A DNA stretch of 64,000 nt from Vulcanimicrobiota bacterium (GTDB taxonomy: Bacteria; Vulcanimicrobiota; Vulcanimicrobiia; Vulcanimicrobiales; Vulcanimicrobiaceae), in contig CAWGBN010000006.1 in the NCBI GenBank assembly GCA_963820825.1, positions 320,001 through 384,000 on the forward strand. Reading direction: 5' to 3'. Shown in pieces: positions 1 through 28,736 of the stretch. Positions within the stretch are counted from its first letter, which is position 1. The number at the start of each line of letters is the position of its first letter. Below the pieces are notes generated by a model. The model was given only the letters and a program-made list of their open reading frames with translations, had not been told where the DNA came from and did no database searches. Made by a program: the position numbers and the translations under genes.

Positions 1-590
1 TGGTCGCGTTGATCGTCGCGACGATCTTGGCCGCGCCGCTGGCGCGCGAGATCGACGGCCACCTCGAAATCGCGCTCACGCGGCCGTGCTCGCGGGTGCG
101 CTTCGCGCTCGGGGTTCTCGTCGCCGACGTCGCCGGCATCGTCGCGGCTTCCGTGCTGACGATCGTCGCGTTCTACGCCTGTCAACTGCTCTTCGAGTCG
201 GCGCGGCTCGATTTTAGCGGAATCAACGCGCGGGCCATCGCTATGGGCGTCGCGATGCCGCTGGCGTGGTACGCCATGCTCTGCGCGGCCACGACCTGGC
301 TCAACCGCTCCTACGGCGCGGTGCTCGGGTTCGCGTGGCCGGTGGCGATTCTCGTCGGCGTCCTCACGCTCGTTCACCCCAGCAACGTGGTGGCGCTCTT
401 CGTGCACGATATTGCCTGGGTGCTCTCGCGGCTCGACCCGCTGTCGTACGTCTCGTTTGCATCGCCGAACGATAACGGCACCTTCGAGTACGCCAGCTCG
501 GACTTCGGGCTGCGGTTCTTGGTAGAGATAATGTTCTTCGTCGTCTATGGTGCGCTCGCCATCATCAAGTGGCAGCGCGTGGAGGCCTGA
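1..590 (+). CDS. ABC-2-type transporter permease-like membrane protein (5' truncated)
   Basis: Several hydrophobic helices; 'AREIDGHLEIALTRPCSR' resembles the ExxxGT-L-xxP-SR loop of ABC-2 permeases; the frame is open from the window edge. Confidence 0.6.
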   Translation, partial: VALIVATILAAPLAREIDGHLEIALTRPCSRVRFALGVLVADVAGIVAASVLTIVAFYACQLLFESARLDFSGINARAIAMGVAMPLAWYAMLCAATTWLNRSYGAVLGFAWPVAILVGVLTLVHPSNVVALFVHDIAWVLSRLDPLSYVSFASPNDNGTFEYASSDFGLRFLVEIMFFVVYGALAIIKWQRVEA

Positions 591-592
591 TC

Positions 593-745
593 GTGGAAAT
601 CATTGGAACGAATTTCTCCCTCACGCTCGGCGCGTGGCGCCTGCGCTTCATGCTGGCGATCGAAGACCAGGACGAACGCCCCAAAGAGAGAGTCCGTCCG
701 CCGCACAAGCTGCGCGTCGTGCCTGAGGACGAGTACGTTCGGTAA
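593..745 (+). CDS. Small hypothetical protein (50 aa)
   Basis: GGAGG at 581-585, GTG at 593, TAA at 743-745; MEIIGTNFSLTLGAWRLRFMLAIEDQDERPKERVRPPHKLRVVPEDEYVR; below the ORF-track cutoff. Confidence 0.55.
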   Translation: MEIIGTNFSLTLGAWRLRFMLAIEDQDERPKERVRPPHKLRVVPEDEYVR

Positions 746-779
746 AAGAGCGGCACGGCGCCCCGCACTTTAACGGGGG

Positions 780-1961
780 TTAGTAAACAAAGCCTGTGCG
801 GACGGCTGGGCGAGCGAACTTGAAGCCGTCGGCGTCGACGGTGTAGAGGTAGATGTTCGGAATCAGCGGATCGCCGCTGATGTTGAAGGCGAACTGACCG
901 ACGAGCGTCGTGAACGTGCCGCCCGTCTGCAGGGTGCGCAGCAGCGCCTGGCGGGAGGTCGCGTTCCCACGCTGCGACGCCGCGATGATTAGCTGCGCGG
1001 CGGCGTAACCGAAGGCGGATTGCGTCGTGATTTGGCTGACCTCGCGCTCGAAATCGGTGACGAGTTGGACGGCGGTCGGGACGCGATCGAGCGGCGGCAT
1101 CGGCGAGGCGACGTACCCCCCTTTGAGCGTCCTGGCGTAGGTCGAAATCGTCTCGGAATTATAGAATCCATCGGCGGCTCCGAACTCGCCGGTGTAGCCG
1201 AGTACGCGCATCGCGTCGGCAATCGGTCCAAGCTCGGCCGACTTTCCGGCAAGAAAAACGTACCCCGGCGAACGGTCGAGCACGGTCCGCGCGGCTTGCG
1301 CGGGATCGGTCTTTTCGAGCGGAAAGAGCAAGACTTGCGCCGGGTGGCGGTCGTTCTGCGCTTGCGTGACGAAGCCGCTCGCGACGTCGTAGCCGTAATC
1401 GCCGTCAAAGGCGACCGCGATCGCGCTCACCCCGCGTTTGCCCTCGAGTGCGACGGTAGCGAAGAGCCGTCCGGCCGCACTGTCGCGTGCGGGGAGGCGA
1501 TAGATATTGTGATAGCCGCGCTTCGTGACCGAGTCGGCGGTGACGGTCGGACAGATCACCGCAAAACCGACGTTCGCGTAGCGCGAAAGCGCGGCGAGCG
1601 TCATCGGCGCAGTGAGATTACCGACGACTCCGATGCAGTTGAAATCCGCGGCCGCGACGCTGGCGTTCGACGAGGCGACGCCGGGATCGTTGCGGTCGTC
1701 GTACGGGCGTATTCCCCAAGCGTTTGAGAGCAACGTGTTAAAGCGATTCTGCTCGTCGACGGCGGCCTGCACGCCTTTGACGACTTCCTGGCCGTACTTC
1801 TGCAGCGGGCCCGAGAGGGTGACGTTGACCGCGATGTTGATCTGCGGCAGATAGCGCTGTGTCTGGACGGGCGGACCCGGAGCGATCTGCGCGCGCGCCG
1901 GAAGCGCCACGCCGCCGGCGGCGGCCGCTGCGGCGGCCGTAATGAACCGGCGCCGTTTCAC
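780..1961 (-). CDS. LivK-like (branched-chain amino acid family) substrate-binding protein with Tat signal
   Basis: MKRRRFI Tat-type leader; LSGP...G, YDD, VVG, AFGYAAAQ and TLVGQFAF motifs of periplasmic binding protein type 1. Confidence 0.8.
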   Translation of the reverse strand: MKRRRFITAAAAAAAGGVALPARAQIAPGPPVQTQRYLPQINIAVNVTLSGPLQKYGQEVVKGVQAAVDEQNRFNTLLSNAWGIRPYDDRNDPGVASSNASVAAADFNCIGVVGNLTAPMTLAALSRYANVGFAVICPTVTADSVTKRGYHNIYRLPARDSAAGRLFATVALEGKRGVSAIAVAFDGDYGYDVASGFVTQAQNDRHPAQVLLFPLEKTDPAQAARTVLDRSPGYVFLAGKSAELGPIADAMRVLGYTGEFGAADGFYNSETISTYARTLKGGYVASPMPPLDRVPTAVQLVTDFEREVSQITTQSAFGYAAAQLIIAASQRGNATSRQALLRTLQTGGTFTTLVGQFAFNISGDPLIPNIYLYTVDADGFKFARPAVRTGFVY

Positions 1962-2806
1962 ACGTATCCGCCGACGGTCGTGATCAGGAAGAAGACCGAA
2001 AACGTCATGTTGGAGATAAAAATGCGCTCGTTGATTACGAAAAGATTGGCCCCGCTTCGGAAGAGATACTCTTCATAGATAATGAGAACCGCGACTGAGA
2101 GCACGCCGAGAAAGTACGGCCGTCCGGCTCCGGCGAGTACCCCCGCGGCTCCCAGGAGCAGGAGCATCGCGCCGTGGAGCACGATCGGTAGAATGCGCCC
2201 GCTCGCTTCGCCGAATCGCACGGGCAAGGAATAGATGCCTTGCGCGCGGTCGACGCCGAGATCCATCAACGCATAGATGATGTCGAATCCCGCGACCCAG
2301 ATCGTTACCGCGGCGAAGAGTAAGATCGCGGGCAGCGTGATCTTGCCCGCAACGCCGATATACGCGCCCAACGGCGCGAGACCGTCGACCGCGCCGAGCA
2401 CGAAGTGGGTCGCCCAAGTGAAGCGCTTGCAGAGCGGATAGATCAACACGAGCAGCGCCGCAATCGGCATGAGCTTCACGCAGAGCGGATTGAGCATCCA
2501 GGCCGAAACGAGCAGCAGCGCGAGGCCCGCAGCGCTCGCCCACAGCATCGTTGCGGGCGAGAGCGCGCCGCTGGCCAAGGCACGGCGAGCGGTTCGCGGA
2601 TTGCGCGCGTCGATCTCGCGGTCGAGAAAACGATTCGCCGCCATTGCCGCGGTCCGCGCGCCGAGAACGGCGAGGGTAATCCAAATCAGCGCGGCGAGCG
2701 AAGGAATGCCGCGGGCCGCCAAGATCGCGCCGACGTAGGCAAAGGGCAATGCGAAGAGCGTGTGCTCGATGCGTATTTCGCGCAGAAAGAGCGCGACGGT
2801 TCTCAC
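1958..2806 (-). CDS. UbiA-family prenyltransferase (MqnP-like)
   Basis: EHTLFALPF, NRFLDREIDARNPRT, YPLCKRFT, GFDIIYALMD; GTGA overlap with the upstream ubiD-family stop. Confidence 0.9.
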   Translation of the reverse strand: MRTVALFLREIRIEHTLFALPFAYVGAILAARGIPSLAALIWITLAVLGARTAAMAANRFLDREIDARNPRTARRALASGALSPATMLWASAAGLALLLVSAWMLNPLCVKLMPIAALLVLIYPLCKRFTWATHFVLGAVDGLAPLGAYIGVAGKITLPAILLFAAVTIWVAGFDIIYALMDLGVDRAQGIYSLPVRFGEASGRILPIVLHGAMLLLLGAAGVLAGAGRPYFLGVLSVAVLIIYEEYLFRSGANLFVINERIFISNMTFSVFFLITTVGGYV

Positions 2807-4335
2807 CGGAGCGACTCGTCGCGGGTGCGCACGAGCCGCTCGTACGATTGCGCGCCCTGACCGGACCAATCGTCGGGCTGTAACGCCTTCGTTATTGCAT
2901 CGAGACCGTAGGCCGTCCAACGTTCGCTTACCAGGCGGCGCGTTGCGTCGTCGGCGACCATCTCCGGCGGCCACCGGCGGGTGTAGCCCTCGGATGCATC
3001 CTTACGGGTCGCGTCGATGCCGATCTTCGTTCCGTATGCGACGCTGTAGGAGCCGTGGTCGAGATCGTCGACCGGTCCCGGCATCGTCACGACGTCGCGC
3101 TCGGGCGCTAAGTTGTTGAGAACGAACCACGCGACCGCACGCGGATCTTGGACGTCCACATCGGCATCGACCACGACCAGGACGCGCGTGAGCATCATCA
3201 TATGGCCGAGCCCCCAGAGGGCGTTCATCACTTTCTTGGCTTGGCCCGGATAGGACTTTCGAATCGAGACGATCGCGAGGTTGTGGAAGCCGCCTTCGAC
3301 GGGAAGATTCATGTCGACGACCTCGGGAAGCATCGCCTGCAGAATCGGAAGAAAGATTCGTTCGGTGGCCTTGCCCAGCCACGCGTCCTCCATCGGCGGT
3401 TTGCCGACGACCGTCGCCGCATACACCGGATTGCGGCGGTGCGTGATGCACGTGACGTGAAAGGTCGGATAGCGATCGGCCGGACTGTAGACGCCGGTAT
3501 GGTCGCCGAACGGACCTTCGACCCGAAGATCTTCGTTGTCGACGTAGCCTTCCAACACGAACTCGGCTTCGGCAGGTACGAGCAGATCGACGCTTTTGGC
3601 GCGCACGAGTTCGACGGGTTTGCCGCGCAGGAGACCGGCGAAGGCAAACTCGTCGAGCATCGGCGGAAGCGGTGCCGTTGCAGCATAGGTGAGCGCGGGT
3701 TCGGTCCCGATCGCGACCGCGACGGGAATCCGTGCGCCCGCGGCCTCGGCGTGCGCCCTGCCCTGTTTGTGACGCTGCCAGTGCATGCCCGTCTCCTGTG
3801 CGTTGAAGACCTGCATCCGGTACATGCCGACGTTGAACCGTCGGCTCTTGGGATCTTTGGTGATGACGAGCGGAAGCGTGATGAATGGACCGGCGTCGAG
3901 CGGCCAGGTCGTCAAGACGGGAAGTTTCGTAAGGTCGGCCGGCGCCATCACGACCTCTTGAACGCTTCCCTCGCGCAGGATCTTCGGAATTGCGTTGGCG
4001 AGCGGCGCGAGCCGCAGCGCACCTCGCAGCTTTCCGACGAACGATCCGCCCGGCGGCGCGATATCGACGAGCTTGCGTACGCGTGCGCCGACTTCGTCGA
4101 GCGTCGTCGCATCGAGGGCCATCGCCATCCGCCGGTGCGTCCCGAACTGATTCGTCAGCACCGGAAAGCTCGAGCCTTTCACGTTGGAGAAGAGCAGGGC
4201 CGGTCCCCCGGCTTTCACGACGCGGTCGGTGATCGCGCCGATCTCCAGCCGCGGATCGACGCTCGCGACGACGACGTGAAGCTCGCCGGCACGCCGCAAA
4301 GCGGCGACGAACTCACCCAAGGACGCAAAAGGCAT
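2803..4335 (-). CDS. UbiD-family decarboxylase (menaquinone biosynthesis type)
   Basis: EGPFGDHTG, NVGMYRMQ, GKPPMED, KIGIDAT motifs. Confidence 0.92.
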   Translation of the reverse strand: MPFASLGEFVAALRRAGELHVVVASVDPRLEIGAITDRVVKAGGPALLFSNVKGSSFPVLTNQFGTHRRMAMALDATTLDEVGARVRKLVDIAPPGGSFVGKLRGALRLAPLANAIPKILREGSVQEVVMAPADLTKLPVLTTWPLDAGPFITLPLVITKDPKSRRFNVGMYRMQVFNAQETGMHWQRHKQGRAHAEAAGARIPVAVAIGTEPALTYAATAPLPPMLDEFAFAGLLRGKPVELVRAKSVDLLVPAEAEFVLEGYVDNEDLRVEGPFGDHTGVYSPADRYPTFHVTCITHRRNPVYAATVVGKPPMEDAWLGKATERIFLPILQAMLPEVVDMNLPVEGGFHNLAIVSIRKSYPGQAKKVMNALWGLGHMMMLTRVLVVVDADVDVQDPRAVAWFVLNNLAPERDVVTMPGPVDDLDHGSYSVAYGTKIGIDATRKDASEGYTRRWPPEMVADDATRRLVSERWTAYGLDAITKALQPDDWSGQGAQSYERLVRTRDESLR

Positions 4336-4364
4336 GGCGTCCTGACTTACGCCCCGGGGAGCGA

Positions 4365-5285
4365 TTACTCTTTGTGAGCGGGAATTGCCGCGACGAAGCG
4401 CGCGCCGCCCGACGGAGCCTCGGCGACCGAGACCGCGCCGTCGTGCGCGCGCGCGATCCAGCTCACGATTGCCAGCCCAAGACCCGTACCGTTGCCGTCG
4501 TCCGAGCGCCGGTAGAAGCGCTCGAAGATCCGCTGGCGCTCTTGCGTGGGAATGCCCTCGCCGTCGTCGTCGACGACGATCTCGCAGAGATCGCCGTTGC
4601 GGCGCGAGGCGATCGCGACGCTCCCGCGCGCGTGACGAATTGCGTTGTCGAGTAAATTCCGCGCGAGTTCGCGCAGGCGACGCTCGTCACCGTCGACGAT
4701 CGCGCTGGCCGGGGAGCTTTCGAGCCGTATGCCGCGCGCGGTCGCAATCGGCTGCGTCTCGCTCGACGAATCGGCGACGACGGCTCCAAGGTCCACCGGC
4801 TCGCACTGCAACGCGCGACGCGCGGGATCGCGCGCGAGCGTCAGCAAGTCGGTGACGACCGCCGATGCTTCGAACGCGCTGCGTGCGATCGCTTCGAAGG
4901 CGGCGCGCGTCTCCTCCGGCGGCCGCATGCGCGCGGCCTGCGCGAGCGCCGCAATCGCGGCCAGCGGGGAACGCAGCTCGTGGGCTGCATCCGCGGCGAA
5001 GATGCGTTCGCGCTCGCGGGCCGCTTCGATCGGTGCGATCGCCGTCCGGGCCAGTACGTACGAAGCGACGGCGACGATCGCGACGATCGGAAGATCGAGC
5101 GCAGCGAGCGTAAGGGCGACGCGTCGCATCGCCGCGCTCAGCGCCTGCGAGCCTTCGGGTGTGCCGAGAGCCGGACCGAGCAGCGAGGTATACTCGCGCG
5201 CCATGAACGCGTAGGCTCCGGCATTGAGCGCCAGGAGCACGCAGACGAAGACGGCGAGATAGAGTAACGCTACCCGAAGAATCAA
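4365..5285 (-). CDS. Sensor histidine kinase (two TM helices, very short extracytoplasmic loop)
   Basis: AAHELRSPL H-box, NLLDNAIRH N-box, DDGEGI, GTGLGL; TTG start overlaps the regulator stop (TTGA). Confidence 0.9.
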   Translation of the reverse strand: MILRVALLYLAVFVCVLLALNAGAYAFMAREYTSLLGPALGTPEGSQALSAAMRRVALTLAALDLPIVAIVAVASYVLARTAIAPIEAARERERIFAADAAHELRSPLAAIAALAQAARMRPPEETRAAFEAIARSAFEASAVVTDLLTLARDPARRALQCEPVDLGAVVADSSSETQPIATARGIRLESSPASAIVDGDERRLRELARNLLDNAIRHARGSVAIASRRNGDLCEIVVDDDGEGIPTQERQRIFERFYRRSDDGNGTGLGLAIVSWIARAHDGAVSVAEAPSGGARFVAAIPAHKE

Positions 5286-5953
5286 CCGGTCTTTAGGCGG
5301 TATCCGATACCCCATACCGTTTCGATGACACCGCTCGCTCCCAGCGCCTTGAGCTTTCGTCGAAGCTGGCTGACGTAGACGTCGACGATATTGCTGGAGC
5401 CCTCGAAATCGTAATCCCAAATGCGCTCGACGATTTGCGTGCGCGAGAGCGCGATTCCGGCGTTACGCGCGAGAAACTCCAAGAGGCGAAACTCGGTCGC
5501 GCCGAGCACGACCGGCCGCCCTTCGTATGCGACGGTGCGCGCGCCGAGATCGACGCGAAGTCCTCCGGCCTCGACCACGCCGAGCATCGGCCGGTCCCCG
5601 CGGCGCAGAATCGCTCCGATACGCGCGACCAGCTCCTCTTCGACGAACGGCTTGACGAGATAATCGTCGGCGCCGCATTCGAGACCCGCGACCCGATCTT
5701 CGACGGCGTCCCGAGCGGTGAGCATAAGGATGGGCGTCTGAACGCCCTCGGCGCGGGCACTGCGCGCCAGCGAGAAGCCGTCCATGCCGGGCAGTCCGAC
5801 GTCGATCACGGCTGCGTCGTAACACCGGCGCAGGAGGTGGTCGAGTCCGGAGGCGCCGTCGGTCACGACGTTCGCCGCATATTTGCGGGCTTCGAGCATC
5901 GTCCGGATCGACTCGGCGACCGGAACGTTATCTTCGACGACCAGAACTCTCAT
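5282..5953 (-). CDS. OmpR/PhoB-family response regulator
   Basis: VLVVED, IDVGLPGMDG, LTARD, GADDYLVKPF, ETVWGIGY. Confidence 0.95.
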   Translation of the reverse strand: MRVLVVEDNVPVAESIRTMLEARKYAANVVTDGASGLDHLLRRCYDAAVIDVGLPGMDGFSLARSARAEGVQTPILMLTARDAVEDRVAGLECGADDYLVKPFVEEELVARIGAILRRGDRPMLGVVEAGGLRVDLGARTVAYEGRPVVLGATEFRLLEFLARNAGIALSRTQIVERIWDYDFEGSSNIVDVYVSQLRRKLKALGASGVIETVWGIGYRLKTG

Positions 5954-5963
5954 ACGAATCGAC

Positions 5964-7094
5964 CTAGTTCTTCAACGGGCCCGGGAAAGCTACTGTCAGC
6001 GCGGCGCTAAAGTACGGGTGCTGGCCGGGCTGCTGCACCTCTTGGGCGAGCACCCGGAACGGCGCGATCTGCACCGCCGCGTAGTAGACGAAGTCGCGGT
6101 TGATGAACGGATTGGCGAAGGCGTCGTAGCGAAGGCCAAAGTATGCGTGCGGGATTGGATAGTACTTCAGCCGCACGTATCCGCCCGACGAGTGCTGATT
6201 GGTCAGGAAGCCGTCCGCGTCGTGATCGTCGCCGTACCATTGTTCGGCTTGGAGATCGAGGTTGCCGTAGCTGGCGTGCCCGAGCAGGCCGTACCGCTCG
6301 TAGAGGTCGGCGAACGGAAGGCGTCCGGTGGGAAGAACGCCGAGCGTTCCTCCGAGCGCGGTCGCGCCGAGATCGACTTCGGCGCTTCTTTTCTGGTAGA
6401 GCGTGTCGCGAAGCCAGATGCTCATCTCGGGACTCTTCATCCAGGTCGACTCACCGGTCGGCACCGGCTTGCCGCCGTAGGCGGAGCCGGCGTAGAAGCC
6501 CATGTCGACGACGCCGTCTACTCGGAAGTTTCCGAAAGTCCGTTCCGCCATCACGCCCCAGCGCGGCGACGAAAGCGGAAGGTTGTTTAGACCGACGTGC
6601 GCGCCGTAGTAGCCGTACTGCTCCAGATCGTCGAGTCGTTGTCCCGGCGACTGCGCGAGCGGAAGCTCGAAGAGCCCACCGCGGAAGAGCGTCTGCGTGT
6701 GCTCGTTGTATCCGGCAGCGAAGATCAGATAGGTCGCAGCCGGTCCTCCGCCCGATCCGAAATTATAGTGCAGGTAAGCGGTGATTGGGCCGATGTTGCC
6801 GCTGCCCAGCAGAATGCCTCCCTGAGAGTACCGCGGACTACCCGGCGCGGGCTGCTTATCGTATTCCAGTTGATACCGGATCGCAAAGATCGTCGTGCCG
6901 TGCTCGGGCAGCGGTAGACGATAACCGTGCGAACGGAAGTAGTTTCCAAACGCGTTGAGCTCCGGCAGCACGCTGTGGCACTGACCGCACTTAAAATGGT
7001 AGCGTTGGGCGAAAATCGGAATTGCCTGCGCCGGCGCGTTCGCCAGCGCGACGAAGAGCAGCGCAAAGCCTGCGGCAGCGAGCTTACTGCGCAA
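5964..7094 (-). CDS. Cyc2-like fused monoheme cytochrome c / outer-membrane beta-barrel protein
   Basis: Signal peptide ending AQA, then IPIFAQRYHFKCGQCHSVLPELNAFGNYFRSHGY (CxxCH at 6975-6989); the remainder is rich in amphipathic aromatic beta-strands; TTG start inferred. Confidence 0.72.
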   Translation of the reverse strand: MRSKLAAAGFALLFVALANAPAQAIPIFAQRYHFKCGQCHSVLPELNAFGNYFRSHGYRLPLPEHGTTIFAIRYQLEYDKQPAPGSPRYSQGGILLGSGNIGPITAYLHYNFGSGGGPAATYLIFAAGYNEHTQTLFRGGLFELPLAQSPGQRLDDLEQYGYYGAHVGLNNLPLSSPRWGVMAERTFGNFRVDGVVDMGFYAGSAYGGKPVPTGESTWMKSPEMSIWLRDTLYQKRSAEVDLGATALGGTLGVLPTGRLPFADLYERYGLLGHASYGNLDLQAEQWYGDDHDADGFLTNQHSSGGYVRLKYYPIPHAYFGLRYDAFANPFINRDFVYYAAVQIAPFRVLAQEVQQPGQHPYFSAALTVAFPGPLKN

Positions 7095-7536
7095 CGATCG
7101 CCGCTCGCATAGGCGCGCCGTAGTGGAAGAAGCAGCCGAAGAGATAGGTGCCCGGCCGATCGGCCGTGATCGTCTGTGAGGATGCGTTCGGCTGGAGCGC
7201 GCCGCTGCTGAACCCGCCGGAAAGGTTGCTGCCGTGCTGCTGCAACGCACCCGAATTAAACGGCGAGCCGCTCGGGAAGGTGCCGGCACCGGGAATCAGC
7301 GTCGCCGTGTGCGCGAACGTGTCGACGTTGACGAAATGAATTTGCGTACCTACCGAGACGGTGGTCACCGGCGGCGAGAAGCCTCCGCTCTGTCCGTACG
7401 GCGTCTGCGATGGCGCGAACTGGGTTAGGCTGACGTCGATGGTGACGCCGCCGCTTCCGCCGGACGACGACGGAATTCCGCCGGCCGTGCATGCCGCGAG
7501 CGCGAGTGCTGCGACCGCGGCAAAACGGCGTATCAT
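7084..7536 (-). CDS. Cupredoxin (type-1 copper) lipoprotein
   Basis: Lipobox LAAC; HT motif and GTYLFGCFFHYGAPM give the His/Cys/His/Met ligands; ATGA overlap. Confidence 0.85.
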   Translation of the reverse strand: MIRRFAAVAALALAACTAGGIPSSSGGSGGVTIDVSLTQFAPSQTPYGQSGGFSPPVTTVSVGTQIHFVNVDTFAHTATLIPGAGTFPSGSPFNSGALQQHGSNLSGGFSSGALQPNASSQTITADRPGTYLFGCFFHYGAPMRAAIVAQ

Positions 7537-8627
7537 TGCGACGCTACCCGATGCTGCTGGCGCACCGCGTCGAGGATCGCGTCGCCGAGTGCGCTCGATG
7601 CCAGCATCGTCTGCGCCAACGTGCCGTCGCCATTCATGACGTAAACGAAGGTCGTGTGCTCGTCGCGGTACCCGCGCTTCCCCTCGATGGAGAGAACGCC
7701 GAACTCGTGCATGACGGCCTCGACGTTGCGAACCGATCCGCCGGCGAGCAGCCAATACCGAGGATTGGCGTCGAAACGCGTTGCGAGCTCGCGCATCGTG
7801 CGCGGCGAGTCGTGCTCGGGATCGAGGGTGATGGTGAGCAATCGTGCGTGGAGATGCGCGTGCGCAATCCTGCGAGCGGCGTCGGCGAACTGGCCGTTGA
7901 TGAGCGGGCAGGCGTCGGTGCAGTGGGCCGATACGAAGGTGATGACGAGCGGCTCGCCGCGTAGTGAGGCGAGCGTAAACTCGCGACCGCGCTGATCGAC
8001 CAGATGCGTCCGCTGCGCCGGCTCCGGTGCTTTCGCTGTGGAACGCCGTTTGGCGTATCCGCCCGGTCCCGGCGACGCCGTCGGTCCGGGTGAAGCGCTC
8101 GCCGAGACCTCGATGATATCGCGCATGGCGTTTGAGACGTAGTGGACCGCACAGCCGATCAAATAAATTCCCGGCTTTGAAAGCGTGACGGTTACCGATG
8201 CGCCGGGATTGAGAAGTCCGCTCGCGTAGCCGCTTCCGAGGATGCCGTTTCCGGTCGGAGAGAATCCGAGACTGGGACTAACCGGCCACTGCGGCGGGGG
8301 TCCGTTCGTCTTCGCAATTACGTTGAGCGTATGAGAGTCGGCTTTTGAAAGATTCACGATCGTGAGCTTAGCGCCGGGGGCGAAGGCGAGAACTTGCGAG
8401 GTCTTCTCTTGCGTGAAGCCGCTCACCGTTCCCCAAACTGGATCGTTCTCGACGCCGATCTTTCCAGTCGGTATCCCCAGACCGATCGCCGACGCCGAGG
8501 GCAGCGGCGAAGGCGAACCGCCGCCTCCGCCGCCACCAATACTGCCCAAACCGCCGCCGTTCGTGCATGCCGTAACGGCCGCGATTGCAAGCGCGCCGAG
8601 CCAAAATGCCGGGCTGCGAAGGTTCAT
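7533..8627 (-). CDS. Cupredoxin-SCO1/SenC fusion lipoprotein
   Basis: Lipobox VTAC; HTLNV and GCAVHYVSNAM; then LVDQRG, CTDAC (CxxxC), ITLDPEHD and EHTTFVY SCO motifs. Confidence 0.82.
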   Translation of the reverse strand: MNLRSPAFWLGALAIAAVTACTNGGGLGSIGGGGGGGSPSPLPSASAIGLGIPTGKIGVENDPVWGTVSGFTQEKTSQVLAFAPGAKLTIVNLSKADSHTLNVIAKTNGPPPQWPVSPSLGFSPTGNGILGSGYASGLLNPGASVTVTLSKPGIYLIGCAVHYVSNAMRDIIEVSASASPGPTASPGPGGYAKRRSTAKAPEPAQRTHLVDQRGREFTLASLRGEPLVITFVSAHCTDACPLINGQFADAARRIAHAHLHARLLTITLDPEHDSPRTMRELATRFDANPRYWLLAGGSVRNVEAVMHEFGVLSIEGKRGYRDEHTTFVYVMNGDGTLAQTMLASSALGDAILDAVRQQHRVASQ

Positions 8628-9214
8628 TGAGGCGGTTTGGTCGCCTGCGGTCCGGGTGTCGCACCCGGCTCGACAACAATGACGTCTTGCATACCTGAGT
8701 GGTAGTGGAAGGCGCAGCCGAAGAGATAGATGCCGGCCTTCTTGGCAACCACGGTGACCGACGATCCCGGATTGATCGAGCCGCTTCTATAGCCGTTCTT
8801 CAGCGGCCCTCCCGATGGTGTCGTCGGGAGCGACGGACTGCTCGGGAAGTTCGCGGGCGGTCCTTTGATCTTCGCGACGACGTTGAACGTGTGGTGAATG
8901 CTCTTCGAAATGTTCTTGATCGTGAGCTTGGTGTTGGGCGGAAAGCCCAGTGCCTGCGAGAATTGTCGTTGCGTGAAACCGCCCAGCGTCGCTTGCCAGG
9001 TCGGATCTTTAATCGTGCCGAGGCCTTCCGCGGGAAGCTCCTCCATTACCGTACCCTTTTTTCTGTCGGGAAGGACGTAGCTGAGTTGCAAGTCGGGCAT
9101 GTTCGGCAGCGCGTACGTGCCGCTATTCGCACCGGTGCTGCCGGAGTTGCCCGCGCATGCTGCAAGTGCCGCGGCCGCAAGCGTCACCGCCATTGCCGCG
9201 AGTTTTTTAGCCAT
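8624..9214 (-). CDS. Cupredoxin (type-1 copper) lipoprotein
   Basis: Lipobox LAAC; HTFNV and GIYLFGCAFHYHSGM; GGAGG upstream; clear paralog of the adjacent cupredoxin domain. Confidence 0.85.
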   Translation of the reverse strand: MAKKLAAMAVTLAAAALAACAGNSGSTGANSGTYALPNMPDLQLSYVLPDRKKGTVMEELPAEGLGTIKDPTWQATLGGFTQRQFSQALGFPPNTKLTIKNISKSIHHTFNVVAKIKGPPANFPSSPSLPTTPSGGPLKNGYRSGSINPGSSVTVVAKKAGIYLFGCAFHYHSGMQDVIVVEPGATPGPQATKPPQ

Positions 9215-9280
9215 ATAACCTCCAGAGAGTGTAGGAATGTGCCTTAGGCTAGCGGTCGAGGATGAAGAAAGTCTAAAGCA

Positions 9281-10117
9281 CTACGGGGGTTTGATCGAGT
9301 CGCGCATCGCTGCCGCGATATTCTGCAGCGCCGGATCGCCCGCCGCATCGATCGTCGCTCGAGCGAACTCATTGCGGGCGGACGCGTGGTCCCCCTCTCG
9401 CAAGAGGACGACGCCCAGGGCAAACCGAGCGCGCGCATACGCGGGCGCGAGCGAGAGCGCGATGCGCAGTTCGCGTTCGGCCGCTTGATAGCGATCCAAG
9501 CGTTCTTCGGCGAGCGCGAGATCGTAATGCGCGACCGCGTACGACGGATTCGCGTGCAGCAGCTTGCCGAAATCCTCACGAGCGGTCGCGGCGTCGCCGC
9601 CTTGGAGCGCGACGATTCCCCGCGAATAGAGCGCTCGTGCCGCGTCCGGTGCGAGCGTGACGTATCGATTGGCCATGCGGCGCGCCTCGGCGAGATCGCC
9701 GCGCGCGAGGTCGATGGAGACGAGATTGGCCATCGCGGCTAGGAAGCCCGGATCGAGCGCGAGCGCGCTGCGCAGCTCGCGCGCCGCATCGTCGTAACGC
9801 TTTAGGTTCGCATACGCGATTGCGAGGTCGTACTGCGCCGTCGAGCCTTGCGGCTCGGCCGGATGGAGCGCGAGGATTCGCTCGAACTCAAGAGCCGCGT
9901 TCGTCCAGTCGCCGCGCGTCTCCGCGTCGATACCGAGCGTGAAGCGCTCTTCGATTTCGCGCCGAATCGCGAGCGCCTGCAACTGCGGTAGCGAAGTCGT
10001 TCTCGGTGCGGGACTCTGCGTTGAGTAGCTCTGCCCTTGGAGCGCCCCCAAGGCGGGCGCCACTCCGAACGTCGCCTCGACTTGGATAAGAAGGGCGGCG
10101 AGCAGCAGAACCCGCAT
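9281..10117 (-). CDS. Exported tetratricopeptide-repeat protein
   Basis: Signal peptide; repeated helical units such as AQYDLAIAY..ALALDP and AHYDLALA..ALSLAP. Confidence 0.85.
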   Translation of the reverse strand: MRVLLLAALLIQVEATFGVAPALGALQGQSYSTQSPAPRTTSLPQLQALAIRREIEERFTLGIDAETRGDWTNAALEFERILALHPAEPQGSTAQYDLAIAYANLKRYDDAARELRSALALDPGFLAAMANLVSIDLARGDLAEARRMANRYVTLAPDAARALYSRGIVALQGGDAATAREDFGKLLHANPSYAVAHYDLALAEERLDRYQAAERELRIALSLAPAYARARFALGVVLLREGDHASARNEFARATIDAAGDPALQNIAAAMRDSIKPP

Positions 10118-10120
10118 CGT

Positions 10121-10375
10121 TCACTGCGTGCCGTCGGAAGGCAGTTCGGCGTCGTGCCAAGAGCCGGCCGCGGCTGCGCGCTCGGGTTTGCACTCCCAAC
10201 CGACCCGCCCCGCGGCGGTAATCGGTCCGAGGAGTCCCGGCGCGGCCGACGGACTGAGCGCCCCGGAGAGCAGGTCTTCCACAGAGGCGGCGCTTGCTAC
10301 GGCAAAATGGCCGCAGAGAAACGCGCCGGCGAGAAGACCGGCTGCAAGCAGGCGCTGGAGATAGGTTCTTGACAC
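10121..10375 (-). CDS. Small exported hypothetical protein
   Basis: Signal-peptide-like N-terminus; 3 bp upstream of the TPR gene; purine-rich RBS. Confidence 0.5.
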   Translation of the reverse strand: MSRTYLQRLLAAGLLAGAFLCGHFAVASAASVEDLLSGALSPSAAPGLLGPITAAGRVGWECKPERAAAAGSWHDAELPSDGTQ

Positions 10376-10409
10376 TTCCTTCCATCATAGCCGAAAGTCT
10401 AAAGAATCC

Positions 10410-12248
10410 GTGAAGCTCGGGCTCGGCGCCGGGATGCTGCTCTCGATTCTGCTCGCGGCAGCGCCGGCGCGCGCCCAAACCCCGCTCGTCGTCGGGTCGG
10501 TGCGGGACCAGCACGGGGCGGCGGTCGATGGGGCCACCGTCGTGGCCCAGACGGCGGCGGGTGTCGGCCCGGCCGCGACGACCGATGCCGCCGGTACCTT
10601 CGCGCTCCATGGCTCGGGGATCGTCTCGGTCCGGATCGGTTGCCGCTACTGCCTCGGATCGGAGGTGGCGGTCAAGCCGGGCGAGCCGGTCGTCGCGATC
10701 GTCCGCCGCTACGACGCGCTGCTGAGCGAAGCACCCTCGCCGGCCGACCTGGCGAGCCTCCCCTACGCCCACGTAGAGTCCTCGGTCGCCCTCCATCCCT
10801 TCACGCTCCTCTCTCAAACGAGCACGCCCTATCCCGGCTCGCTGTTGAGCGATCGCGGTCTCTCGTCGAGCGGCGCGCTGCTCATCGACAACGGCGCCCC
10901 GAACTACGACATCGTCGCCGGCGAATCGCCGTACGCGCTCATCCCCGCGTATTACGAACAGGGCGCGGCGCTGCACGACGCGACGCTCGCGTACGCATAC
11001 GGCGATCAAGCGGCCGGCGGCGTCGTGATGCTCGATCCGTTCGTCGCCGGGTCGAGCGCGGAGGTCGCGACGATCGGCAGCGAGGCGATCGCTCGCGCGC
11101 AAGTCGGATCGGACGCATCGTCGATATCGGTCGGTACGTTCAGCAACGACGAGGAGTCGCGTCAGCGAGGCGACCTTACCGCGAGCTGGCCGTTGGGAGC
11201 GGACCAGTCGTTCACCGTCTCCGGAGGCAGCGAGCAAGGCCGCAACTACGAATCGCCGGCGTCCTCGTTTGCCGGCAGCTTCTCATTTGCCGATGCCGGC
11301 TTCAGCGATCCGCGCGCGCTCAACCTCTCGCTCTCCGCCGTGATGGATCGTGGCAGTTACGTCGCGAGCAGCTACCAATGGCCGACATCGACCGGCTGGT
11401 CCGATTCCGGTTTCGATGCGAGCATCCATACCAACGGACCCGTCGTCGCATTTGCCGACGCCGCGACTCGTTCGTCGAGCGGTTTCTACGACGCGCAATC
11501 GTTTGGGCTCGAGCGAGTCGGCGCGACGCTCGATCAGACGCGCATCGATGCGGGCCTCGTCGCGAGCGGAAGTGCGTACGCGGTGACGGCGGGAGTCGGC
11601 GCCTTCTGGTTCGACTATGCGGGTGGTACCTACGGCATATCGCAGCCGGCACGTGCGGCGCTCGCGGTACCGTCGCTCGATGCGAAGCTCTTTCCAAACG
11701 GCAAGTGGAGCTTGGACCTTCAAGGCAGCGGGTCGTTCACGCTGCCGACCTTCATCGAGCAGTATCTCTATGCCGAGGCCCGGCCGACGCCGGTGCAGCT
11801 CTCGCGCAACGCACTCCAAGCGGCAATTCTCAGCTATACCGACGGCGCGCGCGTGCGTTTCGAATTCGAAGCGGCCACCGAAAACGTGAGCGGCAGCGCG
11901 AGCGGAAGAATTTCGTCGGCCGGTCTTTCGGCGATATGGCAGATCGCGCCGGCGATTTCGCTGCGGACGTGGACGATGCACGTCACCGACTCCGCGCCGC
12001 TCTACGGCGCGGTTCTTCCCTACGGACCCGCGCCGACGGTGAACGCGATTTGGTTGACCTACGACACGGGGAGCGCGATTCGCGCCGACGTGCTATACCG
12101 CCGCGATCTGCTCGATGCGCTTCCGTTCTATCACTTCGACGGTGCGATCTCCGGTCCGATCGGCGATCGCTTGCGATGGTACGCCGGCGCCGAGGACCGG
12201 ATGCGCCGCACGTTCCTCGACGCCGGCCTTCGTTTCTCCGCGCGCTAG
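10410..12248 (+). CDS. Outer-membrane protein with carboxypeptidase-regulatory-like N-domain (TonB-dependent receptor-like)
   Basis: Signal peptide; GSVRDQHGAAVDGATV and TTDAAGTF; plug-like RGLSS, LLIDNG and YGDQAAGGV; beta-rich C-terminus ending GLRFSAR. Confidence 0.65.
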   Translation: MKLGLGAGMLLSILLAAAPARAQTPLVVGSVRDQHGAAVDGATVVAQTAAGVGPAATTDAAGTFALHGSGIVSVRIGCRYCLGSEVAVKPGEPVVAIVRRYDALLSEAPSPADLASLPYAHVESSVALHPFTLLSQTSTPYPGSLLSDRGLSSSGALLIDNGAPNYDIVAGESPYALIPAYYEQGAALHDATLAYAYGDQAAGGVVMLDPFVAGSSAEVATIGSEAIARAQVGSDASSISVGTFSNDEESRQRGDLTASWPLGADQSFTVSGGSEQGRNYESPASSFAGSFSFADAGFSDPRALNLSLSAVMDRGSYVASSYQWPTSTGWSDSGFDASIHTNGPVVAFADAATRSSSGFYDAQSFGLERVGATLDQTRIDAGLVASGSAYAVTAGVGAFWFDYAGGTYGISQPARAALAVPSLDAKLFPNGKWSLDLQGSGSFTLPTFIEQYLYAEARPTPVQLSRNALQAAILSYTDGARVRFEFEAATENVSGSASGRISSAGLSAIWQIAPAISLRTWTMHVTDSAPLYGAVLPYGPAPTVNAIWLTYDTGSAIRADVLYRRDLLDALPFYHFDGAISGPIGDRLRWYAGAEDRMRRTFLDAGLRFSAR

Positions 12249-12258
12249 ACCGGCAAGG

Positions 12259-12675
12259 CTACGAAGCTTTCGGCTTCCAGGCTCCCAAGATTACACCCAT
12301 GACCGCCATCCCGACGACGACGTAACCTACGTTGATGATCGCGAGCGTCGAGCCGCGCATCTCGTAGGTGTAATCCATCGCGGTCATCGTGCCGAAGATC
12401 AGGAGCCCCATCGAGAGCCCGATCAACGCGCCTCGCCCGGGATTCAGATCGCCGCGCCAACTCAAGATGCGTGCGAGACCGTATGCGAGCAAGAACGCCA
12501 TGACGAACGTGAGCCCGTACTCATAGCCTGCGGCGCCCCCTTGCGTCATGTCTCCCGTCGCCTTGCCCATCGCCGTCATCCACGCCGATGTGAACAGCAT
12601 GCCATACCACAACCAGCCGATTAAAAAGAAGACGATCGCCGAAACGACGATCGCCCACCAGTTTACGCGATGCAT
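12259..12675 (-). CDS. DUF1761-like membrane protein
   Basis: NWWAIVVSA..GWLWYG.LF...W pattern; four TM helices. Confidence 0.75.
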   Translation of the reverse strand: MHRVNWWAIVVSAIVFFLIGWLWYGMLFTSAWMTAMGKATGDMTQGGAAGYEYGLTFVMAFLLAYGLARILSWRGDLNPGRGALIGLSMGLLIFGTMTAMDYTYEMRGSTLAIINVGYVVVGMAVMGVILGAWKPKAS

Positions 12676-12702
12676 GCGGGCGCCTTACTGCCCGCGACCC
12701 GG

Positions 12703-14973
12703 CTACTCCTCGTCGCGACGAGCGTGCGGGCGTCGCCGCCGCCGCATCGGCGGCGCGCCGGGCGCTCCCGCCGGTGGAGCCGACGAAGCCGACGGAGCAG
12801 AGTCGCGCGTCTCGCGCGGAGCGCGCGGACCTCGGCTGTAATCGCCGTTGCCCGAAACGCCTCCCAAGAGCGCTTTGCGCGAGAGATTGATCCGGCCCTG
12901 GCCGTCGATCTCCATCACCTTGACCATGACCTCGTCGCCGAGTTGCACGACGTCTTCGACTCGTTCAACCCGCGTCGGTGCGAGCTGGCTGATGTGCACC
13001 AGCCCTTCCTTGCCGGGGAGAATCTGCACGAATGCGCCGATGGTAATGATGCGGGTGACTTTACCGCGATAGGTCTCGCCGACGAGAACCTCCTTGGTGA
13101 GGTTCTCGACAATCTCTTTGGCCTTGTCGCCGGAAGCGCCGTCGAGCGAGGTGATAAAGACGCTGCCGTCGTCCTCGATGTCGATCTTCTCGACGCCGGT
13201 GTCGGCGATGATCTTGTTGATGACCTTTCCGCCGGGTCCGATGACGTCTTTGATCTTCGCGGGGTCGATCTTGACGATGATCATCCGCGGCGCGAATTCG
13301 GAGAGCTGCTCGCGCGGTGCCGCGATCGTCTCGACCAGCTTGTCGATGATCGCGTGGCGCGACTTACGCGCTTGCTCCATCGCTTCGCGCATGATCGCGA
13401 TCGTGACGCCTTGCACCTTGATGTCCATTTGGATTGCGGTGATGCCTTTTTTTGTTCCCGCGACTTTAAAGTCCATCTCGCCCAACGCGTCTTCGAGTCC
13501 CTGGATGTCGGTGAGAATCGCGTACTTGCTGCCTTTGAGGATCAATCCCATCGCAACGCCGGCGACGTGTTCGCGAATCGGAACGCCGGCGTCCATCAGC
13601 GCGAGCGTCGAACCGCAGACGGAGGCCATCGAGGACGATCCGTTCGATTCGAGCACTTCGCTGATCAGCCGCAGCGTATATGGAAACTCGTCCTTGGGTG
13701 GAAGAACGGGCGTGAGCGCCCGCTCGGCGAGGTGGCCGTGGCCGATCTCGCGCCGTCCCGGACCGCGCATCGGGCGCGTCTCGCCGACCGAGTACGGCGG
13801 GAAGTTGTAGAAGTGCATGTAGCGCTTGTCTTCGAGCTCCATGATGCCGTCGAGCCGTTGCGCGTCGCTCGTCGAGCCGAGGGTGGCCGCGGTGAAGACC
13901 TGCGTCTGGCCGCGGGTAAAGACTCCCGAGCCGTGAACGCGCGGAACGTAATGCACTTTGCACCAGATCGGGCGGACTTCATCGGGCTTGCGGCCGTCGG
14001 GCCGAACTTTCTCATCGACGACCATGGTGCGCAGCTCGTCCTCTTCCATGGCCTTGACGATTTTGTTGAACGCTTTGGCGGAAGCCGGTTCCTCGAGCAG
14101 CGCCTTGACGTTCTCGTCCTTCTTGCCGCATCGCGCGAGCGCTTCGTCGACGTTGATTTCGCCGAATGCTAGTTCGCGCTTCTGCTTATCGACGGTTCGC
14201 ATCGCCTTTGCGACGTCTTTGGCGAACGACTTGCGCACCCAGCGCTCCAGGCTCTCGTCGACGTGCGAGACGGGATATTCGCGCTTTGCCTTTCCGGCTT
14301 TTTTCGCGAGCTGCTCGATCGCTTTGACGATCTTGCGAATCTCGGCGTGTGCGAACTCGACCGCGCCGAGGAATTCCTCCTCGGCAATCTCGTCGCCGCC
14401 GCCCTCGACCATCATGACCGCATCGGCCGTTCCGGCGATCACGATGTCCATACCGCCGGTTGCGTACTGCGGCAGCGTCGGGTTGCAGACGTACTTGCCG
14501 TTTTCGTCGCGACCGACGCGAACCGCGGCGACCGTCTTGTCGAACGGAATGTCGCTCAGTGCGAGCGCGGCGCCGGCGGCGCAGACGCCGAGGACGTCGG
14601 CATCGAGCTGCGGATCGATCGAGAGCACGGTGGCGACGATCTGAACGTCGTTGCGAAATCCATCGGGAAAGAGCGGGCGAATCGGACGATCGATTTGGCG
14701 CGAGCTGAGAATTCCGTGCTCGGGCGGACGTCCTTCGCGTTTGATGTAGCCTCCGGGAATTTTTCCGGCGGCGTACATCTTCTCTTCGAAGTCACAGGTG
14801 AGGGGAAAGAAGTCGATGCCTTCGCGAGGTTTCTCGGAGGCAGTGACGGCGCAGAGCACGACGTTTTGATCGCCATAACGAACCAACGCGGAGCCGTTTG
14901 CTTGCTTCGCCAGTTCGCCGGTTTCGATGGTCATCGTGCGCCCGCCGACCGTTAAGCTTACGGATTCGGGCAC
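12703..14973 (-). CDS. pnp: Polyribonucleotide nucleotidyltransferase (PNPase)
   Basis: ETGELAKQANG, DFFPL, RREIGHG, ESNGSSSMAS, GEMDFKVAG, KH and S1 domains. Confidence 0.98.
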   Translation of the reverse strand: MPESVSLTVGGRTMTIETGELAKQANGSALVRYGDQNVVLCAVTASEKPREGIDFFPLTCDFEEKMYAAGKIPGGYIKREGRPPEHGILSSRQIDRPIRPLFPDGFRNDVQIVATVLSIDPQLDADVLGVCAAGAALALSDIPFDKTVAAVRVGRDENGKYVCNPTLPQYATGGMDIVIAGTADAVMMVEGGGDEIAEEEFLGAVEFAHAEIRKIVKAIEQLAKKAGKAKREYPVSHVDESLERWVRKSFAKDVAKAMRTVDKQKRELAFGEINVDEALARCGKKDENVKALLEEPASAKAFNKIVKAMEEDELRTMVVDEKVRPDGRKPDEVRPIWCKVHYVPRVHGSGVFTRGQTQVFTAATLGSTSDAQRLDGIMELEDKRYMHFYNFPPYSVGETRPMRGPGRREIGHGHLAERALTPVLPPKDEFPYTLRLISEVLESNGSSSMASVCGSTLALMDAGVPIREHVAGVAMGLILKGSKYAILTDIQGLEDALGEMDFKVAGTKKGITAIQMDIKVQGVTIAIMREAMEQARKSRHAIIDKLVETIAAPREQLSEFAPRMIIVKIDPAKIKDVIGPGGKVINKIIADTGVEKIDIEDDGSVFITSLDGASGDKAKEIVENLTKEVLVGETYRGKVTRIITIGAFVQILPGKEGLVHISQLAPTRVERVEDVVQLGDEVMVKVMEIDGQGRINLSRKALLGGVSGNGDYSRGPRAPRETRDSAPSASSAPPAGAPGAPPMRRRRRPHARRDEE

Positions 14974-15064
14974 AATTTCTCCTAAATTCGAAATATTCTA
15001 TTCTTTTTTTGCCTCGTCAGCATTCGGCAGGGCCGAGCCGCGACCTGCCCTAAACGGCCCATCC

Positions 15065-15919
15065 ATGCCAGTTACCCCTGCAGGCTTGACCGAGCTCAAG
15101 CTCAAGGCCAATGACGTGCGTCAAGGCATTATTCGCTCGTTGCTCGCCGCCGGTTCCGGACACTCTGCCGGTCCGCTCGACATGTCCGACATCTTTGCGG
15201 CGCTCTACGGCCACTTGATGCGCCACGATCCCGGCAATCCCGAGTGGCCCGATCGCGACCGGCTGCTGCTCTCCTGCGGGCACATCGCGCCGGTTCGATA
15301 CTCGGCGATGGCGAACTTCGGATACTTTCCGCTCGAAGAGTTGCTGACGTTGCGCAAGTTCGGAACGCGGCTCCAAGGCCACCCCGAGCGCGTGCGTCTG
15401 CCGGGAACCGAGACGACGTCGGGTCCGCTCGGCGAGGGACTCGCGCAGGGCGTCGGCATGGCCTTCGGTGCGAAGATGGACGGCAAGGCGTTTCGCGTTT
15501 GGGTCGTCACCTCCGACGCCGAGCATCAGTGCGGGTTGCATTGGGAGGCGGTGCTGACCGGCGCGAAGTTCGCGCTCGACAATCTCACCGCGATCGTCGA
15601 TCGCAACTTCATTCAGATCGACGGCAGCACCGAAGACGTGATGCCGCTCGAGCCGCTCGCCGATAAGTACCGCGCCTTCAATTGGGAGGTGCTCGAGTGC
15701 GACGGTAACGATCTCGCGGCGTTCATCGAGACCGCAGAGCGCGCGGTGCACTGCACCGGCAAGCCGCAGGTAATCATCGCCAACACCGTGCCCGGCAAGG
15801 GCGTATCGTTCATGGAAGGCGATTATACGTGGCACGGCAAGCCGCCCAACGCGCAACAAGCGGAGCAGGCGTTGCGCGAGCTGGCGGCGCAGCGCGAAGG
15901 AATCGCTGCCGATGCATAG
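15065..15919 (+). CDS. Transketolase, N-terminal (TPP-binding) subunit
   Basis: GSGH, DRLLLSCGH, LQGHP, SGPLGEG, TVPGKG, WHG. Confidence 0.92.
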   Translation: MPVTPAGLTELKLKANDVRQGIIRSLLAAGSGHSAGPLDMSDIFAALYGHLMRHDPGNPEWPDRDRLLLSCGHIAPVRYSAMANFGYFPLEELLTLRKFGTRLQGHPERVRLPGTETTSGPLGEGLAQGVGMAFGAKMDGKAFRVWVVTSDAEHQCGLHWEAVLTGAKFALDNLTAIVDRNFIQIDGSTEDVMPLEPLADKYRAFNWEVLECDGNDLAAFIETAERAVHCTGKPQVIIANTVPGKGVSFMEGDYTWHGKPPNAQQAEQALRELAAQREGIAADA

Positions 15920-28726: not shown

Positions 28727-28736
28727 CGTTACTACG

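Follow-up and report, generated by a model that had tools for sequence, protein, structure and literature searches.

Does an operon that combines a cytochrome-porin, copper proteins and a two-component system serve to draw electrons in across the outer membrane, or does it handle copper? The question is raised by a locus in a member of the family Vulcanimicrobiaceae, which we analyzed within a 64,000-nucleotide stretch of DNA, hereafter the window (contig CAWGBN010000006.1 of assembly GCA_963820825.1, positions 320,001 to 384,000). A reading of the sequence alone, hereafter the original prediction, had described six co-directional genes as an electron-uptake module and had named a copper uptake or resistance locus as the alternative. 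The six genes are indeed all located on the minus strand at positions 4365-9214, joined by overlaps of 4, 4, 11 and 4 bp and by one 10-bp gap. The boundary was drawn too narrowly, however, since genes for an exported TPR protein and a small secreted protein, a divergent TonB-dependent-receptor-like gene and two promoter boxes also belong to the module (Table 1). Judged from its sequence and that of its relatives, the module is real and class-wide, a variant of a Cyc2-type conduit in which the partners are plastocyanin-like lipoproteins and the regulon is open to testing, and its function is inferred from these features.

The cytochrome-porin and its cupredoxin partner

The predicted monohaem cytochrome-porin was borne out. 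By visual inspection, a signal peptide precedes a single N-terminal CxxCH, the residues C36, C39 and H40 of which are invariant in all 72 rows of the alignment. The barrel fold, set as a check beforehand, was obtained with AlphaFold2 from the same 72-row alignment (mean pLDDT 82.8), with 16 strands following a small helical haem domain, and the Foldseek matches of this model were general porins. The available passages of Keffer et al. (PMC8406198; the other papers cited below are likewise represented by passages) define Cyc2 by AxPxFAR[Q/K][T/Y], CxxCH, PxL and a length of at least 365 aa. The porin has the length (376 aa) and the PxL, formed by the invariant P44 and L46 four residues past the CxxCH. 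Like the Cyc2 of A. ferrooxidans, Cyc2PV-1 of Mariprofundus, Cyc2TAG1 of Ghiorsea and Cyt572 of Leptospirillum, it combines a signal peptide, an N-terminal CxxCH and a predicted 16-strand barrel, with AxPxFA upstream and PxL downstream of the haem motif and a length above 365 aa. In contrast to Cyc2, which reads FAR[QK][TY], it reads FAQRY or FAERY; therefore, the motif screen of Keffer et al. would drop it, and its clade may be under-counted because it fails the screen used for the Cyc2 tree.

A profile search with the porin returned 3203 representatives at E 0.001. The canonical Cyc2 motif was present in 33 of 115 homolog rows (those of the top 150 in which the haem motif was detected by pattern), and the haem-domain residues of the porin are common to the homologs that bear this motif. 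In a quick tree of 122 rows, built without a characterized Cyc2 as a reference, the operon porins formed a single clade, A, with a support of 100, and stood apart from the rows with the canonical motif (83). A weak Ralstonia match obtained from a plasmid search sat on a long branch of the tree. Unlike Cyc2, clade A is confined to three families of one class, and its partner is a lipoprotein cupredoxin rather than a cytochrome c4. No match was found by an NCBIfam search, and a search of PDB sequences with the porin profile gave nothing meaningful. By its anatomy the porin is Cyc2-like, as originally predicted, although the strict motif and the separate clade argue against its membership, and we do not file it as a Cyc2. 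The charge of the barrel lumen, considered as a clue to the substrate, was without bias, the conserved residues of its polar faces including 7 basic and 7 acidic ones. Separately, two proteins of ~1040 aa (P0193 and P0204) match the cytochrome-porin profile with their C-terminal part and are possible fusions.

All three lipoprotein type-1 copper domains of the operon retain the expected His...Cys-x2-His-x4/5-Met ligands (H108/C167/H170/M175 in CupA, H99/C159/H162/M168 in CupB and H76/C135/H138/M143 in CupC), and each protein also has a lipobox Cys. The CupC ligands are invariant in 27/27 aligned orthologs. A fold model, made for CupC only, predicts a cupredoxin (pLDDT 88.5), the closest solved folds of which are small cupredoxins, including a purple cupredoxin (Z 12.1) and plastocyanin (Z 10.9, rmsd 2.3, 92 aligned residues); plastocyanins also rank first by sequence. 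The analogy with rusticyanin has to be abandoned, as rusticyanin was ranked only 25th among the fold matches of CupC (Z 7.6, rmsd 3.0, 103 aligned) and the rusticyanin model TIGR03095 did not match any operon cupredoxin at E 0.1. The SCO domain was recovered by Pfam (SCO1-SenC, PF02630, E 9.9e-20) with its CxxxC and distal His, both Cys and the His being invariant in 28 rows, and it is fused to the second cupredoxin, CupB. An assembly error was considered as the source of this fusion and rejected, since 21 of the 23 genus loci have both domains in one reading frame and the remaining two appear frameshifted; in most other genera cupB and SCO are separate genes. An iron uptake system of the FtrABCD or EfeUOB type was likewise rejected, CupC matching FtrB only at Z 9.5 and no permease recurring beside cupC. 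Three runs of a complex prediction for the porin, CupC and haem scored 0.51, 0.01 and 0.17 against a mark of 0.32 and were used neither way.

Full-length porin orthologs (strong matches) were found in 54 of 61 relatives, comprising 34/36 genomes of the genus, 4/5 of a second family (f2), 15/19 of a third family (f3) and the host itself. They were also found in 81 of 151 family genomes, one of these matches (G169) being a paralog, and, at E 1e-60, in none of 57 genomes that represent 16 further families of the phylum. We compared 80 loci, including 23 from the genus, 4 from f2, 13 from f3 and 40 hand-picked from other genera; one paralog was removed, as were two loci truncated at the end of a contig, which left 77 scorable loci, among which kin are not independent. 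The cupC gene was located directly upstream of the porin gene in 77/77 of these loci, in all three families. In the draw of 151 genomes, both genes were found in 76 and neither in 69, and the porin occurred alone in 5 and cupC alone in 1. Without the genomes marked unpublished (G048, G059; G078, G084, G146, G140) 73 had both, and none of our conclusions rests on these genomes. Among the discordant genomes, G065 and G127 do carry cupC at its usual position, with a frameshift; the porin gene of G122 is broken, the locus of G155 is truncated at the end of its contig, and G169 holds the paralog.

The remaining genes are more loosely attached. In full-length loci of family 1, the genes for the TPR protein, the small secreted protein, the receptor-like protein, the response regulator and the kinase were each present in 20/20 genus loci and 32/35 loci of other genera, compared with 20/20 and 31/35 for SCO and 20/20 and 19/35 for cupA/B. 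Lipoprotein_15 was found in 11 of the 35 other-genus loci, and no locus was scored as having both it and cupA/B, L191 being borderline. In f3, the cupC-porin pair stood alone in 10/10 full loci, with no receptor, SCO or kinase gene alongside. A cassette of response regulator, kinase and TPR genes was seen in 11 of 13 f3 kinase loci. The kinase gene lies ~20-25 kb from the porin gene in seven genomes, and the cassette is present in G042, G049 and G071, all of which lack a porin ortholog; four of five near-complete genomes without cupC-porin are also without a match to the receptor or kinase. The SCO gene moves or inverts with cupA/B or Lipoprotein_15 and not with cupC, and in f2 a SCO-cupA pair occupies a separate locus. 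The conserved class-wide core is thus cupC and the porin only. The neighborhood conservation that was predicted holds for this tight pair, while the three cupredoxins, SCO and the kinase pair do not form one fixed unit. A conduit carrying its own copper loader and regulator is accordingly supported in its cupC-porin linkage and weakened in the rest, because SCO follows cupA/B or Lipoprotein_15 and the kinase cassette can stand apart.

Several observations concern these accessory genes. Lipoprotein_15 (PF03640) replaces cupA/B beside SCO in L172, L176, L179 and L182-L185, and both types of protein share Pro/Gly-rich tails ending in Tyr or Cys-x-Tyr-Cys; considered as a SCO docking signal, these tails occur near and far from SCO alike. 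In two f2 loci (L247 and L248) the SCO-cupA pair adjoins, by eye, an apparent ECF sigma factor and an anti-sigma gene.

A promoter box shared with a HiPIP

A generic sigma-70 scan found no promoter, and the box of the module came from the comparison of aligned ortholog upstream regions, as a direct repeat TTYA-N7-TTYA with an 11-bp period followed by a -10-like hexamer, which in box 1 is positioned 8 bp before the small secreted protein gene. The box precedes this gene in 23/23 genus loci and 23/33 loci of other genera (background 0.75% per 170 bp). It also precedes cupA/B matches in 19/43 genus loci (the 43 include the internal cupB) and 19/26 other loci, as well as cupC in 11/13 f3 loci; it was found in 0/3 f2 loci and never stood before the response regulator, TPR, receptor or porin genes in the loci scanned. 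Application of the strict pattern to f2 and f3 was discarded as circular, since it recovered only the sites used to draw it.

The predicted OmpR-type regulator and histidine kinase were both confirmed at the end of the operon. An 11-bp direct repeat is an OmpR-family pattern, and the operon's response regulator is therefore a candidate binder of the box. Both proteins score below the cut-offs of the heavy-metal models TIGR01387/01386, and the kinase has two N-terminal hydrophobic segments and a loop of ~28 aa with no conserved His or Cys.

A weight matrix was trained on the module promoter sites, with the HiPIP genes excluded from training. In the host genome nine sites scored above 22, the next best reaching 15.2. 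Two of them are in the module, one precedes the unlinked cupA paralogs, one a HiPIP gene and two the genes of propeller lipoproteins, and three are without a gene on the same strand. The strict pattern gave 43 sites in nine other genomes and none in reversed controls. Behind the 41 sites that were retrieved, the recognizable downstream genes encode exported proteins (module proteins, CupA paralogs, a soluble plastocyanin-like protein, HiPIP, Lipoprotein_15, and propeller and other lipoproteins), and neither a copper exporter nor a multicopper oxidase was found among them; for a few sites no downstream gene was convincing.

The HiPIP of the host (C8:2308-2589, L252) is TAT-exported, passes the Pfam HIPIP model and has the box upstream; a second copy is encoded at C7:96186-96443. 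HiPIP matches were obtained in 41/41 genus genomes, mostly in two copies. The box was found upstream in 26 of 30 genus loci (the best match per genome for the best 30 of the 41, host included) and in 20 of 30 by a stricter pattern, compared with a background of 1.2% and with 0/39 upstream regions of sister porins. In G199 (L347) and G087 (L348) the box, HiPIP, cupC and porin form one run, with no other module genes in the stretch examined. The top NCBIfam model for a HiPIP ortholog (G029) was Iro NF041615, at 58.3 bits below its cut-off of 100. Based on these patterns, the cytochrome-porin module and an Iro-like HiPIP are apparently switched on together.

Two further groups of proteins were seen behind the box. 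Propeller-like lipoproteins of ~370 aa repeatedly have it upstream (host C7:113277-114398 and C8:3974-5113; L259, L260, L263, L274, L277, L292) and gave no family or PDB match. A NirK-like copper protein below its cut-off (host C8:630936-631934, L257) has a weak box upstream (10.8).

Proposed function and its rivals

We favor, with a probability of roughly 0.62, an inward outer-membrane electron conduit leading to high-potential carriers and O2. An outside reductant, either Fe(II), probably organically complexed, or reduced humic or phenolic matter, would reduce the single haem c in the barrel, which would pass electrons to the lipid-anchored, plastocyanin-like CupC. From CupC they would move to the accessory cupredoxins, to the soluble HiPIP encoded elsewhere behind the same promoter box, or to both, and CupA/B or HiPIP would then deliver them to a haem-copper oxidase and O2. 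SCO would service CupA/B, and the OmpR pair would activate the gene set through the TTYA-N7-TTYA box. The cofactors bound, the protein contacts, the direction of flow, the donor and the binding of the box by the regulator are what we infer in this scheme; for the donor, about half of the probability would go to Fe(II) species and most of the remainder to reduced organic matter. Since most hosts lack RuBisCO, the conduit would be a supplementary energy supply for heterotrophs. A broader proposal, in which heterotrophs of the Eremiobacterota run a surface electron-harvesting regulon (porin, plastocyanins and Iro-like HiPIP) that carries electrons from Fe(II)-organic complexes or reduced humics to O2 for maintenance energy, is tentative and in our judgment doubtful.

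Sister porins bear on this reading by analogy. Forty loci of weaker porin matches fell into four further clades. In clade B, a small CuA-type cupredoxin gene is located directly upstream of the porin gene in 15/24 loci, a co-directional run of coxII, coxI, CuA cupredoxin and porin genes occurs in 8/24 (L210, L216, L217, L219, L220, L227, L230 and L239), and a trihaem cytochrome is encoded nearby in 12/24. The oxidase, COX1 according to Pfam, is one that we take to be of the ba3 type. Within the genus, clade B adjoins the trihaem cytochrome gene, the host copy (C2:246703-248995) being frameshifted. Clade C (host C2:283425-285085; L203-L206, L211, L212 and L218) has a YceI-family gene downstream in 7/8 loci, and clade D consists of cytochrome-porins of ~600 aa followed by a multicopper oxidase in 3/3 loci (L228, L231 and L234).

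Several known systems offer partial precedents. Cyc2 is co-encoded with the cupredoxin rusticyanin (PMC13741234), and the rus operon of Acidithiobacillus (cyc2-cyc1-cup-coxBACD-rus; PMC13741234 and PMC10654088) resembles the module in combining a cytochrome-porin with blue-copper and copper-assembly genes; PMC7558416 was also taken as precedent. In contrast to rus, the module operon has no Cyc1 or oxidase, plastocyanin-type lipoproteins replace the soluble rusticyanin and AcoP, an OmpR pair and TPR and TonB-receptor-like genes are present, and the hosts mostly lack RuBisCO. The layout of clade B is closer to rus than that of the module. HiPIP-41 of Ferrovum (PMC10879576) is a precedent for a HiPIP carrier and, together with Iro of Acidithiobacillus and PioC of R. 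palustris, shows the same arrangement of a soluble high-potential HiPIP beside an outer-membrane conduit. In the module, unlike these chains, the HiPIP is tied to the conduit by a shared box; in two genomes it also belongs to the operon, separated from the porin gene by that of a cupredoxin. Unlike Acidithiobacillus Iro, it falls below the Iro model cut-off. A cupredoxin, SCO1/SenC and a cytochrome also occur together for metal redox in Sideroxydans Slit_1812-1818 and in the Geobacter ompB and Leptothrix mofA clusters, which differ in having multicopper oxidases or large extracellular proteins and, in the passages available, no cytochrome-porin (PMC11429942, PMC5566968).

The conduit has to be set against a series of observations that weigh against it. 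The upstream motif departs from that of Cyc2 (AQRY in 61/72 and AERY in 11/72 porin rows), clade A is on a long branch apart from the canonical-motif homologs in the 122-row tree, and, according to Keffer et al. (PMC8406198), the divergent part of the Cyc2 tree is where function is most uncertain. The oxidase-linked clade B is not the sister of clade A in gene trees, so that sister porins support electron transfer by analogy only, and the YceI partner of clade C is not a redox carrier. The recurring neighbors of the module include no oxidase or cytochrome c. One genome (G152) has the porin with no cupC within 1.5 kb upstream, and in another (G089) both genes are present and separated by an inversion. 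HiPIP matches were found in 58/81 module genomes and 31/70 genomes without the module and were not found in 23/81. The box also lies upstream of many non-redox exported proteins (propeller lipoproteins, Lipoprotein_15 and a phosphoesterase). RuBisCO was detected in 4/61 genomes, only 3 of them among the 54 with a porin ortholog (3/59 without the genomes marked unpublished).

The copper alternative is retained in the form of acquisition or buffering, in which the receptor and haem porin would take up copper complexes or reduce them, the cupredoxins would bind the metal in the manner of CopI, SCO would pass it on and the kinase would sense copper status. Three type-1 copper proteins plus SCO speak for it, as do the receptor-like gene with its invariant CxxC in 52/55 full family 1 loci, the copper proteins adjoining three porin clades and the lack of any CopA-type ATPase over the cut-off in the host genome, which is 85% complete and frameshift-rich. 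It also keeps some weight because the CopR box of C. glutamicum, on the opposite strand, shares TCTTCA at an equal 11-bp period and CopS is likewise short-looped (PMC3140484). More generally, copper-response loci (CopRS of C. glutamicum, CusRS, CopI, OprC/NosA) share with the module an OmpR pair, a direct-repeat box of similar period, cupredoxins and a TonB receptor. However, CopS has 3 His and 2 Met in its loop (PMC3140484), whereas the module kinase lacks such a His/Met sensor loop and both regulatory proteins miss the heavy-metal cut-offs. No copper exporter or multicopper oxidase was found among the recurring neighbors, with the neighbors at single loci not all annotated, and behind the strict boxes of nine genomes the same genes are missing, the weak NirK-like site of the host being the one exception. 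HiPIP binds no copper, yet its gene has the box upstream and can be part of the operon itself, and neither it nor the haem porin has a counterpart in copper-response loci. The minimal f3 form also does without receptor, SCO and kinase genes alongside. The barrel fold, the porin-cupredoxin linkage, the apparent co-regulation with HiPIP and the oxidase-linked sister porins favor electron transfer over copper resistance, and we regard the copper reading as unlikely.

Two other explanations concern the direction and the use of the electrons. In an envelope or redox-stress program, the haem porin and carriers would either sense or quench redox stress outside the cell or act as a gate for a solute, signaling to the kinase without conserving energy. 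The persistence of the response regulator-kinase-TPR cassette in the three genomes without cupC-porin fits such a role, as do a short kinase loop that may need a partner to sense and the many box-headed genes for exported lipoproteins without known function. The grouping of several high-potential carriers in one regulon is more suggestive of flux than of signaling, though, and sister porins sit in oxidase operons, making this program improbable. Type-1 copper sites and HiPIPs are high-potential carriers, which would suit the acceptor side and argues against an outward conduit reducing Fe(III) or humics under low oxygen. For HiPIPs a range of 50-500 mV is given (PMC7462912). In favor of outward transfer, Cyc2 homologs have been described from humic bogs and from taxa that reduce Fe(III) (PMC6344600), and one Cyc2 titrates at -130 mV (PMC13692758). 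Against it, the host genome, where one trihaem gene is frameshifted, had no called protein in which a single frame holds more than two CxxCH, and we consider outward transfer highly improbable.

Genome surveys already label Eremiobacterota as iron oxidizers from Cyc2-like matches alone, and Cyc2-like genes, clade unspecified, have been published for them (PMC8357290, PMC13594681; the word "cupredoxin" does not occur in the available passages of the latter). Our literature search, thin on subscription papers, found nothing on the cupC-porin pairing, the box or the HiPIP link; the proteins may be listed in supplements such as FeGenie tables, Cyc2 alignments and bioRxiv files. The module bears on the question of what divergent Cyc2-like proteins do in heterotrophs, offering likely partners (CupC and HiPIP), a candidate regulator and its candidate binding box, and the donor, direction and inducing signal can be tested directly with four small proteins and one promoter. 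If the broader proposal of a surface electron-harvesting regulon holds, an abundant, almost uncultured soil lineage would be an overlooked oxidizer of soil iron and humics, and Cyc2-type proteins would reach beyond iron lithotrophy.

Layout of the locus, neighboring genes and host

The features assigned to the module are collected in Table 1. The receptor-like protein matches Pfam CarboxypepD_reg, its orthologs weakly match Plug and TonB barrel models, and its Atlas neighbors are Plug-domain proteins at 0.93, which is a lead; its C78 and C81 are invariant in 26 rows.

Table 1. Coordinates of the module features within the window
Feature	Coordinates	Strand	Description
Histidine kinase	4365..5285 (probable TTG start 5285)	-	two N-terminal hydrophobic segments
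OmpR-family response regulator	5282..5953	-	candidate box binder
Monohaem cytochrome c-porin fusion	5964..7094 (TTG start 7094)	-	376 aa; Cyc2-like; predicted 16-strand barrel
cupC	7084..7536	-	150 aa; lipoprotein plastocyanin-like cupredoxin; conserved partner of the porin
cupB-SCO fusion	7533..8627	-	364 aa; lipoprotein cupredoxin and SCO/SenC domain
cupA	8624..9214	-	196 aa; lipoprotein type-1 cupredoxin, accessory; two further paralogs on host contig C8
Promoter box 2	9246..9277	-	upstream of cupA
Exported TPR protein	9281..10117	-	278 aa; accompanies the kinase pair class-wide
Small secreted protein	10121..10375	-	84 aa; one conserved Cys; without Pfam family
Promoter box 1	10384..10414	-	TTYA-N7-TTYA direct repeat; -10-like hexamer; upstream of the small secreted protein gene
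TonB-dependent-receptor-like outer-membrane protein	10410..12248	+	612 aa; divergent from the operon; N-terminal CxxC invariant

The absence of a terminal oxidase from the operon was correctly predicted, and cyc1 and coxBACD were found neither there nor among the recurring neighbors. An Rfam search of positions 1-16000 of the window gave no match. The haem synthesis, System II and Rieske/cytochrome b genes to which the original prediction pointed are present in the window; lying 28-41 kb away and being housekeeping genes, they were rejected as module parts and not counted as evidence.

The host is a soil bacterium of the little-studied phylum Eremiobacterota and resembles Ca. Cybelea. Its genome is 85% complete with many frameshifts, and its best protein matches bearing an organism name are mostly from Ca. 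Cybelea or Eremiobacteraeota. Two haem-copper oxidase loci are present, along with several genes that encode multicopper-oxidase domains, and at this completeness no NiFe hydrogenase match was found. A cultured relative is an aerobe with a Gram-negative envelope, "Cyc2" having no occurrence in the available passages of its description (PMC9758169).

Other genes of the window lie on the minus strand around the module. UbiD and UbiA homologs (1958-4335) follow the kinase gene in the genus and not in many other genera; recurring in some genera only, they were rejected as module parts. At 46952-49082, genes for a Rieske protein and for a cytochrome b fused to a C-terminal cytochrome c adjoin the System II and haem genes. 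A probable NAD-linked formate dehydrogenase cluster at 25295-30665 comprises molybdopterin oxidoreductase, NuoE/F-like and FdhD-like genes.

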